Positions 42,874 to 45,890 of a DNA stretch of 64,000 nucleotides are shown here, in pieces (position 1 is the stretch's first letter; the number at the start of each line of letters is the position of its first letter). Source of the DNA: Halioglobus sp. (GTDB taxonomy: Bacteria > Pseudomonadota > Gammaproteobacteria > Pseudomonadales > Halieaceae); assembly GCA_020443345.1 (NCBI GenBank), contig JAGRIH010000021.1, forward strand, positions 45,018 through 109,017, read 5' to 3'. The position numbers and the translations under genes are program-made. Below the pieces are notes generated by a model. It saw only the letters and a program-made list of their open reading frames with translations. It made no database searches and was not told the DNA's origin.

Positions 42874-43959
42874 TTAGAAATAAACGTGGGCCTGGAGGAA
42901 GTATTCCTCACCATCCGGGTACAGCGGGTCATCGCTGTCCCGCAGCCGCACCACGGCGCGCAACTGGGTGTGAGACCAGGGAAAATATTCCCAGACGAAG
43001 CTCGCGCGTTTTCTATCGCGATCCTCACCACTGAAGCTCTGGTGTTCAAGAGAAAGCTTAAGATTTTGCCCCTTTACTACCAACCAGTTTGCTTCAAGCA
43101 GAGCGATATCCATTTCGGTATCTGATGCGAGCCTGTCGTCGTCCTCGATCTGGTCATACTCCAGCAACCAGGTCACCGGACCGGTATTGAGTCCTGCGAA
43201 GATGCCGATCAGCTTCCGGTCCACCAGGTCCGTATCGTTATAGCCCGCGCTCACGCCGAGTTGCCCCCAGCCGTCAAGCCAATTGCCGCGAAACATCACC
43301 CACTTGCCATCGTCCACCTCACCGCCCCCGCCCGAGCCGTTGGTAACGGACAACTGCGCCTGGATATGGTGTGTATCGTAACCCAGTTCCACGCCATTAT
43401 CCGGCGTCGAGAAAGTGACGCCGCTGGCCTGTCGCACGAATGCCGTGTCATCCTGTAACCGCCAACCGAAGGGAAGGAAAATCTTTCCCCCTTTCAGATA
43501 CCAGTCCTTCCTCTGGATCTTGACCCAACTCTCCCGATTGATGGAGCCGCCGGGCGCGACTTGCTGGTCAACATAGAGGGCCAGGTACTGGTTGAGCTGC
43601 AACCGGCCATAGAGGGTTACCGCATCGGTGGTGAATTCCAGGTTGCTGTCGACATTGTCCACGTCAAACTGCCGGGCGCTGTAGCGCGCGTTACCGCCAA
43701 GGCGCAGGCCATCGAATACTGCGAAATCCGGCTCCACGGCTTTCTCGGTCAAGGGCCTTACAGAGAGAACGGATGCGCCATAGGCACTGCCGAAAGCCGT
43801 GCGCATGCCGCCGCCTGTGGGGTTGACATGGCATACGTTGCACTCATTGCCGGTCCGGACTGACAGGTAGGGTTCCGCCCGAGAGAGCCCCGCATACAGC
43901 GTCAACAGTAGGACGGCCACTGGCGCTGTGTGCCTGACAAAAGGCAACGTCGGCATCAA
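42874..43959 (-). CDS. predicted outer-membrane beta-barrel protein with N-terminal CxxCH heme motif (fused cytochrome-porin architecture)
   Basis: Signal peptide (...[14 protein letters not shown]), CNVCH 12 residues after the predicted cleavage site (encoded at 43828-43842), alternating amphipathic strands and a C-terminal ...QAHVYF. Confidence 0.6.
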   Translation of the reverse strand: [361 protein letters not shown]

Positions 43960-45890
43960 TTGTTCTCCGCCCCGGCATCAATCCACTCCCGCACGGACTG
44001 TATCTGGCTGTTGCTCAGCGGTGCACCGCCCAGGGGCATGCGCGAACCGACGGGAGCCGTACCCTCCAGCTTTTGGACGATCAAACTGTTGTTGGCATCT
44101 CCCGGTAACACCCGGGTGAGCGCCGGGTTTTGCGAGCTGGGGACGTTGACCAGATTATCGAAGGCCTGGCCCTGGGACAGGTTCATGCCCGCCGCAGGAG
44201 CGGCTCCGGTGTGGCATCCGGACACGGCGCACGAGTTGTTGAATATCTGGGTCTGAATTTCCGATAGGGTCGTTGTTTCAGGCTCCGGCTCCGGCTCCGG
44301 TTCCGGTTCGGGGGGCGTGGCAAGTGTAAAGGTGACTATCGCGTCTCCACCTCCGGTGCCGTCCCGGTCACCATCCAGCACGCGCCCCTGCACGTCGGTA
44401 AGGGGAGTGCCACCAGTACCCAAGACCGTGAGCTGATAGGTGTCATCCATCGCAGCGACGCCGGTAAAATCCAGCTCGACGGAATTGTCCTCCACCAGCA
44501 CGTTGACGTGACTTATCTCCATCTCATTGCCGTCACTGAAGGAACCGTCACCGCCGCTGGCCAGCAACTGGAATTGTCCGGCCTCCGGCTCGAGAGGCGC
44601 GGCATTGAAGTTAAGCTCAATGGAGGTGGGAAAGCTGTTCACGACGGCACCGTTTGACGGTACCGTGGAGTTGACAAGAAACCGCCCGGAACCCATTTGC
44701 GAGTTGTCGGGCACTATCTGACCCCGCATCGCGCCCTGTGGAAACGCGGGTGTATAGACCTCTGCGTACAATCCCTGATTGCGCAGCGCGCGGGACAGGC
44801 CTTCGGTCAGCGCCGTATCCACGGCGAACCAGTGACTCAAGTTCTGCACGTCCTGCTCTAACGCAATGGCTATGGGGCCGCGCTGGCCGAGCGGCGCCTG
44901 GCGAATGGCGGCACCGGTTGCATCATCGGCCCCGCTGTTGTTCAGGTGAAAGCTGGCGCTGGACTCGCTAACCTGCAGCGTCAATGCCAGCAGTCCGCTG
45001 ACCCCGCTCGTCGATGGCGGTACCACGTCGCCGGGGCTGAGATTGGTGAACATTATCTCCACGTTCTCGCCGGGTAACTGGCCGCGCACTTCACCACCGG
45101 GGTGTTCGGGCGAGTGTACGTTGACGTAGTAATAACCGTTATCCAGGTCCGCCAGATCCTCCGCATCCAACACCTGATGCGCTGCAAACCAGTGGTCCGC
45201 GTTGTCGACATCCTGTGTGAGTTGGATTACCACAGGTCCGTTGACCCCTGCCAGCGCGCGATGGATATGGCTGGCGGTAGCGTCTTGCAGCCCGACCGTG
45301 GTAACGTGGATAGTCAGCTCGGTGGCCTCGGGGCTCAGGGTAATCGCGGCGCGGCCCATCGCAGTGGTATCGACCACCGGCACTTCCTGGCTGCCGGATA
45401 GCTGCAGAAATCGAACGCGTACATCCCCGATAACGATCTGACCGCGCAGCGCGCCGTCCGGCAGTCCCTCGGTGACAACCAGCAAATACAGGCCGCCGGC
45501 CTCCAAAGCCGCCAATTGCGTTTCATCGAGTACAGTGTCCTCGGGCAGCATCCACTGAGTATCGTTGCTGGCGTCCAGTTCGATTTCTACCGGGCCTGAC
45601 TCCCCGGCCAGACCCCGGCGCAGCTGTACCGCCGTGGCGGTCAGCCCCTGCAGATCGACGGTTCCCTGCAGCGTATCGGTGTCGAGATCCAGTTCAAACT
45701 CGGCGGAGGCGCTGGCACCGCTGGAACTCCCCGCCACCACCTGCATGGCGTCAAGCTGTACCTCGATGGTCATGGTATTGGCCGGCTGGGTGTTTGAGTT
45801 GTTATTGTTACCACCATTATTGCAACCGGAGACCAGGGCGATCGTCGCTAAAATCAGTGCCGCTACTAATTGAATTGCATATCGAATCAT
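43956..45890 (-). CDS. lipoprotein with three CHRD domains, an Ig-like domain, a (PE)n linker and a C-terminal cytochrome-c-like (PSCyt-type) domain
   Basis: Lipobox LVSGC. The canonical CHRD repeat is LSGSQEVPVV...ASHIHRALAGVNGPVVIQL...YYVNVHSPEHPGGEVRGQL, flanked by two degenerate repeats ending ...ALRGQIV and ...AMRGQIV. PPEPEPEPEPEPE linker. C-terminal IFNNSCAVSGCHTG...MPLGGAPLSNSQIQSVREWIDAGA. Its stop overlaps the start of the downstream barrel gene by 4 nt. Confidence 0.7.
   Translation of the reverse strand: MIRYAIQLVAALILATIALVSGCNNGGNNNNSNTQPANTMTIEVQLDAMQVVAGSSSGASASAEFELDLDTDTLQGTVDLQGLTATAVQLRRGLAGESGPVEIELDASNDTQWMLPEDTVLDETQLAALEAGGLYLLVVTEGLPDGALRGQIVIGDVRVRFLQLSGSQEVPVVDTTAMGRAAITLSPEATELTIHVTTVGLQDATASHIHRALAGVNGPVVIQLTQDVDNADHWFAAHQVLDAEDLADLDNGYYYVNVHSPEHPGGEVRGQLPGENVEIMFTNLSPGDVVPPSTSGVSGLLALTLQVSESSASFHLNNSGADDATGAAIRQAPLGQRGPIAIALEQDVQNLSHWFAVDTALTEGLSRALRNQGLYAEVYTPAFPQGAMRGQIVPDNSQMGSGRFLVNSTVPSNGAVVNSFPTSIELNFNAAPLEPEAGQFQLLASGGDGSFSDGNEMEISHVNVLVEDNSVELDFTGVAAMDDTYQLTVLGTGGTPLTDVQGRVLDGDRDGTGGGDAIVTFTLATPPEPEPEPEPEPETTTLSEIQTQIFNNSCAVSGCHTGAAPAAGMNLSQGQAFDNLVNVPSSQNPALTRVLPGDANNSLIVQKLEGTAPVGSRMPLGGAPLSNSQIQSVREWIDAGAENN
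44281..44310. repeat. hexanucleotide tandem repeat (GGCTCC/GGTTCC, 5 units) encoding the PE linker
   Basis: ggctcc ggctcc ggctcc ggttcc ggttcg, read directly from the sequence. Confidence 0.9.

Follow-up and report, generated by a model that had tools for sequence, protein, structure and literature searches.

The closest described systems to the locus considered here are the Fe(II) oxidases Cyc2 and FoxE, which are its sole characterised relatives. Cyc2 belongs to the fused cytochrome-porins, to our knowledge the main current genetic marker for neutrophilic Fe(II) oxidation, and the templates reported for it are the 16-strand porins OprO and OprP. In conduits of the MtrCAB type, by comparison, decaheme cytochromes are threaded through a 26-strand barrel that is itself free of heme. 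The present locus lies in a stretch of 64,000 nt (the window, to which all coordinates refer) from contig JAGRIH010000021.1 (positions 45,018 to 109,017, forward strand) of assembly GCA_020443345.1, a metagenome-assembled genome (MAG) of Halioglobus sp., and consists of two overlapping genes on the reverse strand, one for a 644-aa lipoprotein that ends in a predicted cytochrome c domain and one for a 16-strand porin with a predicted heme of its own. The cytochrome domain and the heme-porin are the conserved core of a broad set of loci, and as a pair they may relay electrons across the outer membrane through two hemes.

The lipoprotein is encoded by an open reading frame (ORF) at 43956..45890 (reverse strand, stop codon included), begins with MIRYAIQLVAALILATIALVSGC and has at least 377 homologs; an identical 644-aa gene is called on metagenome contigs. 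An earlier reading of the window, made from the sequence alone and referred to below as the sequence-only reading, had reported this ORF with a lipobox, LVSGC, and both are present: the signal peptide and lipobox occupy residues 1-23 (45822..45890, reverse strand), the N-terminus ending in ...IALVSG before Cys23, which agrees with the pattern [LVI][ASTVI][GAS]C, and Cys23 is invariant in 21 aligned homologs. A lipobox recurs across all architectures of the porin's partners (a crude regular expression detects one in 58 of 88 partner ORFs). The residue at position +2 after the lipobox Cys is Asn in the 644-aa protein and mostly Gly, Ser, Thr or Ala, rarely Asp, in its relatives; by the rule established for E. 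coli, such residues speak against retention in the inner membrane, and the protein is predicted to be an outer-membrane lipoprotein. As the whole architecture is conserved across a family of at least 377 proteins, the features read from this one sequence are not due to chance, and the relatives carry no annotation beyond 'CHRD domain-containing protein'.

Residues 539-644 (43959..44276, reverse strand) correspond to a monoheme cytochrome c domain of the PSCyt1/FoxE type. Searched against the PDB, the domain profile aligns with each of the two FoxE heme domains (5mab; E=3.5e-8) and with cytochromes c6 (E=5e-5 to 1e-2), in keeping with the c-type, PSCyt1-like domain that had been proposed. The assignment to PSCyt1 (PF07635) itself stands by transitive homology, nine of ten domain-profile relatives passing the gathering threshold and relatives scoring 23-66 bits, but not by a direct match, the 644-aa protein reaching 14.3 bits against a threshold of 22 (E=0.064). 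The motif CAVSGCH (C554-X4-C559-H560) is encoded at 44211..44231 (reverse strand), exactly where the sequence-only reading had placed it, and is predicted from the conservation of its columns to provide heme attachment and the proximal His; the codon for Met618, within RMPLGG, lies at 44037..44039 (reverse strand) and would supply the distal ligand. The conservation check proposed for the motif Cys and His and for the Met of MPLGG came out in favour of heme ligation, since all are conserved in homologs: in the domain alignment C16, C21, H22, M80 (equivalent to Met618) and P81 are invariant, the distal Met-Pro aligns with RMPLG/RMPPG of FoxE, and in 120 homologs the motif cysteines are essentially the sole cysteines of the mature proteins.

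The sequence-only reading had called the C-X4-CH spacing non-canonical; within the family it is not unusual, about half of all copies carrying it. Among the 120 homologs the motif column reads CxxCH in 81 and C-X4-CH in 38, with one truncated; among 137 domain copies at 80 reference-genome loci, the sample used throughout and drawn from GTDB species representatives, the counts are 83 for C-X4-CH, 53 for CxxCH and one for C-X3-CH. An exhaustive search of 1.84 billion representatives returned 21,281 proteins with the cytochrome domain at E<=1e-3, and the best 147 of them (P0241-P0387) hold 366 copies, with C-X4-CH in 172, CxxCH in 163 and C-X3-CH in eight; Met-Pro is kept in 353 of these 366. 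Two residues inserted cleanly behind the first Cys set the longer motif apart from the shorter (C-A-[x-S]-G-C-H versus C-[AS]-G-C-H), and two-domain proteins show every combination of the two spacings. At least about 18 spacing switches are required on the domain tree, against 78 for shuffled states, a count that is rough given a neighbour-joining tree built on 100 columns only with the motif columns masked. No account of alternation between CxxCH and C-X4-CH in PSCyt1-type domains was found in the searchable literature, the coverage of which is incomplete. CX4CH is listed among known heme-binding motifs, and CGTAGCH is the C-X4-CH heme site of Desulfovibrio vulgaris cytochrome c3. Retention of the ligands across the spacing switches, together with the standing of CX4CH as a known heme motif, makes a strong argument for heme binding; judged by conservation, the C-terminal domain very probably binds heme, and C-X4-CH is a family-wide alternative to CxxCH that has been kept under selection. 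The two heme domains of FoxE are reported to swap their distal Met ligands, so that ligation of its own heme by Met618 in a single-domain protein is only putative. Relatives of the domain often contain two to eight tandem copies, as in P0241, in which a row of five cytochrome domains accompanies three CHRD repeats.

The partner gene (42874..43956, reverse strand) encodes 360 aa from its ATG, comprising a signal peptide, a small N-terminal heme segment and a 16-strand porin, and is entered at NCBI as hypothetical protein MCB1678175.1. The stop codon of the cytochrome gene overlaps the start codon of the barrel gene in the sequence TGATG, which indicates translational coupling. The barrel is present at 62 of the 80 loci; at 60 of these its gene directly follows a cytochrome-domain gene in the same orientation, so that the partnership with a co-transcribed heme-barrel, surmised earlier from this window, extends well beyond it. 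Its heme motif, CNVCH (C40-H44 of the 361-aa ORF; 43828..43842, reverse strand), is conserved in homologs; the barrel family has at least 717 members, mostly of 345-385 aa and annotated as hypothetical, a single N-terminal CxxCH occurs in 116 of the 120 barrel homologs listed, and the consensus of the heme segment is AEPYLAVR.G..C..CH.NPTGGG.R..FG. The AlphaFold2 (AF2) model, with a mean predicted local distance difference test (pLDDT) of 85 and a predicted template modelling (TM) score (pTM) of 0.81, consists of a short helical N-terminal segment and 16 strands, the barrel ending in Phe, and Foldseek places it among 16-strand porins, its top matches including OprP (2o4v) and OprO (4rjw) at TMq 0.65-0.66. 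The heme segment has no invariant Met; H358 is invariant and H298 nearly so, both in the barrel wall. From this linkage a physical partnership of lipoprotein and barrel is likely.

Across genomes the porin's partner varies in form. Among the hosts are Halieaceae, 'Pseudomonadales' MAGs, Shewanella salipaludis, Colwellia, Woeseiaceae and Steroidobacteraceae, and the partner may consist of three CHRD repeats, an immunoglobulin (Ig)-like domain and a cytochrome domain (CHRD3-Ig-cyt, ~640 aa), of Ig-cyt (~290 aa) or of cyt-Big_5-cyt (~400-440 aa). Woeseiaceae have a run of three genes, for cyt-Big_5-cyt, the barrel and then a protein with two Big_7 domains, six CHRD repeats and one cytochrome domain (Big_7x2-CHRDx6-cyt); at L014, L015, L017, L020 and L047 (Woeseiaceae and relatives) this third gene encodes a lipoprotein of ~1055 aa. 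The 644-aa protein resembles the two Woeseiaceae cytochrome components merged into one compact form. When ORFs of the 80 loci were clustered without bias, six recurrent families emerged: the cytochrome partner (80 loci), the barrel (62), an extracytoplasmic function (ECF) sigma factor (52), an S8 peptidase (48), an anti-sigma factor (47) and a TorF-like porin (47).

The genes of this cassette that diverge from the cytochrome-barrel operon are all on the forward strand of the window. They encode the ECF sigma factor (46127..46726; Pfam Sigma70_r2/r4/ECF), the anti-sigma factor (46723..47412; Pfam zf-HC2, with the motif H-x3-C-x2-C), the S8 (subtilisin-like) serine peptidase (47438..48694; 418 aa, a probable lipoprotein; Pfam Peptidase_S8, E=4e-28) and the TorF-like (Gcw_chp) outer-membrane porin (48703..49419; near-threshold Pfam and NCBIfam matches). 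The peptidase has intact Asp/His/Ser catalytic motifs and a lipobox-like N-terminus, and it is a possibility that peptidase and TorF-like porin serve as site-1 protease and outer-membrane sensor for the anti-sigma factor. A candidate ECF-type promoter for the cytochrome-barrel operon, GAACC-N-GGGCACTTAC (45917..45946, reverse strand), holds a conserved position in eight loci, and a second candidate, TGAAC-N-GGAGTACTCAC (45972..46000, forward strand), conserved across loci, stands back to back with it before the sigma operon. In those eight loci, the proteins of which are only 43-60% identical, the region 5' of the cytochrome gene contains GTTCA-N24-26 (AT-rich)-GAAC[CG]; read per strand, this block yields two back-to-back copies of TGAAC-N~20-ACTYAC, one for each divergent operon. 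No sigma-70-type promoter was found. The conserved motif fits an autoregulated ECF sigma factor, the main target of which would be the cytochrome-barrel operon. A GC-rich hairpin with a T-run at 45962-45981 (reverse strand), resembling a terminator, overlaps the sigma-side -35 element in the divergent intergenic region.

The N-terminal part of the lipoprotein is made up of CHRD domains, for the bacterial forms of which we know of no assigned function. The three repeats that had been proposed are borne out by Pfam (PF07452; 232.5 bits against a gathering cutoff of 24.1, E=1.7e-69, in three stretches), and a family-specific hidden Markov model (HMM) sets their boundaries at residues 39-156 (45423..45776), 157-276 (45063..45422) and 277-396 (44703..45062), all on the reverse strand. 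Each repeat is modelled by AF2 with about eight strands and pLDDT >90 as a Greek-key beta-sandwich like that of superoxide dismutase (SOD). The repeat HMM also upholds the reported distribution of HIH, which is found in the middle repeat only: repeat 2 is canonical, with the signature HHHHH (H195, H208, H210, H233 and H259, all invariant), and the outer repeats are degenerate, with signatures TQRQV (repeat 1) and HARHY (repeat 3, HxH lost) and with Q.R (VQLR) and A.R (AIRQ), respectively, at the His-triplet columns. The His triad is the best-conserved part of canonical repeats; the AF2 secondary structure puts its members H208 and H210 in strand 4 and H259 in strand 7, strands that in SOD1 hold the Cu ligands His46, His48 and His120. 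Exactly one intact triad is present in the ~640-aa group and five to six in the six CHRD repeats of the ~1055-aa relatives, and the conserved triad makes a metal site in the canonical CHRD possible.

The likeness of CHRD to Cu,Zn-SOD is one of fold and strand topology. Foldseek aligns the repeats with Cu,Zn-SOD chains at TM ~0.55; a relationship in sequence was rejected, as hhalign gives the canonical CHRD profile against human SOD1 a probability of 0.45%, and a profile search of the PDB with CHRD returned chordin only. The full set of Cu and Zn ligands with the zinc and electrostatic loops of Cu,Zn-SOD is not found in the repeats. The chordin CHRDs (PDB 9rd6, 9qvv, 9igm) belong to the same Pfam family, match the bacterial profile at E ~6e-8 and share the SOD-like Greek-key beta-sandwich; they lack the histidines of the HxH...H triad, which is invariant in canonical repeats of bacteria. 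According to the chordin structures of 2026, these CHRDs are SOD-like, metal-free and without the SOD loops, and they bind glycosaminoglycans. The searchable literature, incompletely covered, gave no paper that ties bacterial CHRD to metals, copper or a cytochrome, most matches for 'CHRD' referring to the Cys/His-rich domain of PCSK9. The partners of many barrels are Ig-cyt or cyt-Ig-cyt proteins without CHRD, so that CHRD is not the core of the partnership, and among the best 147 of the 21,281 domain proteins only ten contain it; the repeats are an accessory N-terminal module, either a spacer or metal-binding. Triple-CHRD proteins that match residues 6-394 of the 644-aa protein are encoded at L032 and L046 (Grimontia sedimenti and G. 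celer) and at L033 (a Thiotrichaceae MAG), and these proteins have no cytochrome domain and no heme-barrel nearby, so that the CHRD3 module also occurs alone.

Between the CHRD repeats and the cytochrome domain lies an Ig-like beta-sandwich of the Big_5 type at residues ~404-524 (44319..44681, reverse strand). The sequence-only reading had named an Ig-like domain here; the beta-sandwich is present in the AF2 model (pLDDT ~85-90) and orthologous domains of relatives exceed the Big_5 (PF13205) cutoff at 25-32 bits, but the domain's own score (20.1-21.4 bits against 23.6) stays under the threshold. Scanned alone, it scores 23.3 bits against the Pfam CopC cutoff of 23.3, and Foldseek matches it to PcoC (1ix2, TM 0.71), the CopC-like domain of YcnJ (9c14, TM 0.78) and 1m42, over a range of 0.70-0.78, so that it has the cupredoxin-like beta-sandwich of the CopC/PcoC chaperones. 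The copper ligands of CopC/PcoC are an N-terminal His the amino group of which is free, together with a further His and Asp, or else a Met-rich loop. A copper site of this kind was considered for the Ig-like domain and ruled out, since the fold fits but the invariant columns contain no His, Met or Cys and there is no free N-terminus; conserved instead are the Asp/Gly-rich motifs SGGDGSF.DGNE and LDGD.DG..GGD. The linker PPEPEPEPEPEPE that follows was likewise found as described, at residues 526-538 (44277..44315, reverse strand); as it is disordered (AF2 pLDDT <50) and absent or of other length in most homologs, it is regarded as a flexible spacer.

Taken together, these features suggest a mechanism in which the lipoprotein would be anchored in the outer membrane and its C-terminal heme domain, carried on the flexible linker, would dock on the heme-porin. 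Heme would be attached to Cys554 and Cys559 of C-X4-CH, with His560 and Met618 as axial ligands. The N-termini of porins are periplasmic, and a periplasmic meeting point is favoured for this reason; the surface tethering put forward in the sequence-only reading is only one possible orientation of the lipoprotein. The porin heme would exchange electrons with a small reductant or oxidant able to reach it through the pore, and the tethered cytochrome domain would connect this heme, by electron transfer, to soluble carriers in the periplasm. Expression of the pair from the ECF-type promoter, under control of the divergent sigma operon, would follow an envelope signal rather than be constitutive. 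As a whole, this two-heme relay across the outer membrane seems to us about as probable as not; architecture, homology, conservation, synteny and the promoter motif are what the sequences show, and heme binding, complex formation, direction of flow, substrate and ECF dependence are the parts that we infer. The sequence-only reading had left the choice between an electron shuttle and a ligand or metal binder, and the predicted heme domain argues for electron transfer. By analogy with Cyc2 and FoxE, Fe(II) would be the favoured substrate, a tentative idea that we consider possible but less likely than not.

Several observations weigh against the relay. Likeness to FoxE is weak evidence for Fe(II), and a family of >21,000 representatives is probably diverse in function. 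The 644-aa protein falls short of the PSCyt1 threshold, AF2 is unsure at residues 553-575, and the case for heme attachment is one of conservation only. No inner-membrane or periplasmic redox partner recurs near the 80 loci, 11 loci encode cyt-Ig-cyt proteins with no barrel in the 2.5-10 kb examined downstream, and the 350 aa of CHRD are unexplained for an electron shuttle. The number of times the promoter motif occurs in the window (four, against 2.1 expected) does not make it statistically rare there, so that its support is limited to position and conservation across loci. The barrel also departs from published descriptions of Cyc2 (Keffer et al.; FeGenie), which specify AXPXFAR[QK][TY] before CXXCH, PXL after it and a length of at least 365 aa: the first motif is not matched by AEPYLSVRT in the window or by the LAVR or FAVR of the family, the best members of which read AEPYFAVRT; VNPTG, with no Leu and with Pro one position earlier, follows the heme motif in place of PXL; and the 360-361 aa are fewer than the minimum. 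On these published criteria, the barrel is Cyc2-like in architecture and is not classed as Cyc2. An unannotated 62-aa fragment with a Cyc2 signature (AVPSFARQT-GMN-CVACH) has the register of the barrel (a 9-mer, three residues and CxxCH), shares with it the motif A-x-P-x-[FL]-[AS]-x-x-T-G-x-x-C and scores 16.3 bits against the barrel HMM (shuffle maximum 2.2), part of the score coming from the signal peptide; as the fragment was found with a synthetic 43-aa query built from the published Cyc2 motif, this agreement is circular and no more than weakly suggestive. A scan of metagenome contigs with the back-translated Cyc2 signature gave two spurious matches only.

Other explanations draw on many of the same observations. 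The locus could be a metal-handling or oxidative-stress module, in which the CHRD His triad would bind copper or another metal as in Cu,Zn-SOD, the cytochrome would feed or drain electrons (for superoxide, or for Cu(I)/Fe(II) detoxification), the porin would admit the substrate and the ECF system would sense stress. The SOD-like fold of the repeats, with HxH and the third His on the strands that would bear the Cu ligands of SOD1, invites this explanation, yet the hhalign result gives it no sequence kinship, and the solved chordin CHRDs, which share the fold, contain neither metal nor the SOD loops. Similarly, the triad is the most conserved element and is repeated five to six times in the ~1055-aa relatives, but it is lost from two of the three repeats of the 644-aa protein, and most barrels have partners without CHRD, which argues that CHRD is not the core activity; the CopC/PcoC fold of the Ig-like domain comes without conserved His, Met or Cys. 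Anti-sigma factors of the zf-HC2 type often sense redox or metal stress, which would agree with such a module, while the literature search summarised above offers no link between bacterial CHRD and metals. On balance, this explanation is unlikely. A related and more ambitious reading, which we regard as speculative and improbable, would make the CHRD repeats His3 centres for copper or iron that replace a second heme domain within a new outer-membrane redox system, an idea prompted by CHRD3-Ig-cyt taking the same position as cyt-Ig-cyt; the six-gene cassette, in which a short Cyc2-like heme-porin would act with a tethered PSCyt1-type cytochrome, would then have gone unrecognised in Gammaproteobacteria that abound in the sea and in sediments (Woeseiaceae, Halieaceae, Shewanella, Colwellia). 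If true, it would supply the first function for bacterial CHRD and a new marker of Fe(II) or metal oxidation that FeGenie and similar current tools would miss.

The same two hemes could instead serve to export electrons to Fe(III)/Mn(IV) oxides or redox shuttles. The architectural evidence for such an outward conduit is identical to that for the relay as proposed, sequence fixing no direction, and the hosts include Shewanella, Colwellia and sediment Woeseiaceae, among which anaerobic respiration is known; nevertheless, Cyc2 and FoxE, the sole relatives with a characterised activity, oxidise Fe(II), known outward conduits use membrane-spanning multiheme chains where only two hemes are predicted here, and no quinol dehydrogenase is linked at the examined loci, so that export has a low probability. 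Were the pair instead a sensory arm of the ECF system, on its input or its output side, that signals redox state or a surface ligand with no metabolic flux, its co-conservation with the sigma, anti-sigma, S8 and TorF-like genes, the promoter motif held in common, the lack of a respiratory partner nearby and the mostly heterotrophic hosts would all be accommodated. Some carriers, however, have the pair without the ECF genes (for example Shewanella salipaludis, L003), the targets of ECF sigma factors are normally effectors and not sensors, and electron transfer agrees better with the translational coupling and with the many relatives that have several domains in tandem; a signalling device is very unlikely. 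A degenerate cytochrome that binds no heme, the Cys pair forming a disulfide or metal site in a structural or adhesive lipoprotein, might be suspected from the non-canonical motif, the sub-threshold PSCyt1 score and the low AF2 confidence around the motif. Low confidence is, however, to be expected where a heme pocket is modelled in the absence of its heme, heme sites of the CX4CH type are established, and the Cys, Cys, His and distal Met-Pro remain invariant amid varying residues while the spacing toggles repeatedly without loss of any ligand, which makes degeneration exceedingly improbable.

The cassette as a whole (42674-49827, 7.15 kb) has a G+C content of 0.58-0.62, against 0.63-0.73 in its flanks, and is bracketed by a 184-nt direct repeat, the left copy of which lies at 42490..42673 and the right, 97% identical and part of a kinase-gene remnant, at 49828..50011. 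None of the flanking lipopolysaccharide (LPS)-core genes of the window is conserved at other loci of the sample; in view of the low G+C content, the direct repeats and the non-conserved flanks, the cassette is considered portable. No tRNA or Rfam RNA element was found at its borders. The cassette sits in an LPS-core cluster, between a Kdo/WaaP-type kinase gene and a gene of 260 aa. To its left, three consecutive Kdo/WaaP-type LPS-core kinase genes (40088-42629; Pfam Kdo, L081 gene calls) stand beside glycosyltransferase genes, and this region is an ordinary LPS core biosynthesis cluster. To its right (49747-50011), an upstream region of the kinase (84 nt, 75%) is joined to the 3' end of the kinase (184 nt, 97%), with ~670 nt deleted between the parts, and the remnant regenerates the 5' end of the next gene.

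These observations bear on how such systems are recognised. The barrel represents a second, shorter family of heme-porins, with at least 717 members annotated as hypothetical, that published Cyc2 filters would reject, and heme counts restricted to CxxCH overlook about half of the domains in a family of >21,000 representatives. The locus also provides the first functional context for bacterial CHRD, which is fused here to a cytochrome in the place where other partners carry a second heme domain; neither the six-gene cassette nor CHRD-cytochrome fusions were found described in the searchable literature, which is incompletely covered. Should the pair exchange electrons with iron, in either direction, heterotrophs of the Woeseiaceae and Halieaceae would join the iron cycling of sediments, unseen by annotation. 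Cultured carriers (Shewanella salipaludis SHSM-M6, Halieaceae WMMBA7 and WSDMB12, and Seongchinamella sediminis) make experiments feasible.

Among known systems, Cyc2 (that of Acidithiobacillus ferrooxidans and Cyc2PV-1 of Mariprofundus) shares with the barrel a signal peptide, a single N-terminal CxxCH and a 16-strand, OprO/OprP-like porin, whereas the dedicated upstream lipoprotein cytochrome and the ECF cassette have no counterpart in descriptions of Cyc2. FoxE, the diheme Fe(II) oxidoreductase of Rhodobacter ferrooxidans SW2, provides the closest solved structure (5mab) to the C-terminal domain, with a common layout of C..CH - G(L/M)NL - PGDP..S - RMPxG - WI..GA and a His-to-Met distance of ~58 residues. 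FoxE is, however, soluble and periplasmic, has two hemes at CxxCH motifs and is encoded in foxEYZ beside a pyrroloquinoline quinone (PQQ) protein and a transporter, whereas the 644-aa protein has a single domain with CX4CH, a lipid anchor, CHRD and Ig-like domains and a heme-porin as its neighbour. No cytochrome family scores higher than PSCyt1 with this protein and its relatives, the motif layout is the same, and relatives with multiple copies exceed the gathering threshold; the Pfam model of PSCyt1 starts at CxxCH, whereas the alignment of the 644-aa protein begins after the first Cys, and the usual setting of PSCyt1 in large planctomycete proteins with PSD1/PSCyt2 is not present here. Cytochrome c3 likewise has a C-X4-CH ending in GCH (CGTAGCH there, CAVSGCH here), but is a class III, bis-His, multiheme cytochrome, in contrast to a class-I-like His/Met monoheme domain in which the spacing alternates with CxxCH among orthologs. 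With MtrCAB, PioAB and MtoAB the locus has in common an outer-membrane barrel and a lipoprotein or periplasmic c-type cytochrome encoded by adjacent genes, as well as electron flow across the outer membrane, which would apply here by inference; it differs in consisting of two monoheme units, the 16-strand barrel itself carrying a predicted heme. The locus of this Halioglobus sp. MAG would be a variant of the porin-cytochrome electron conduits.

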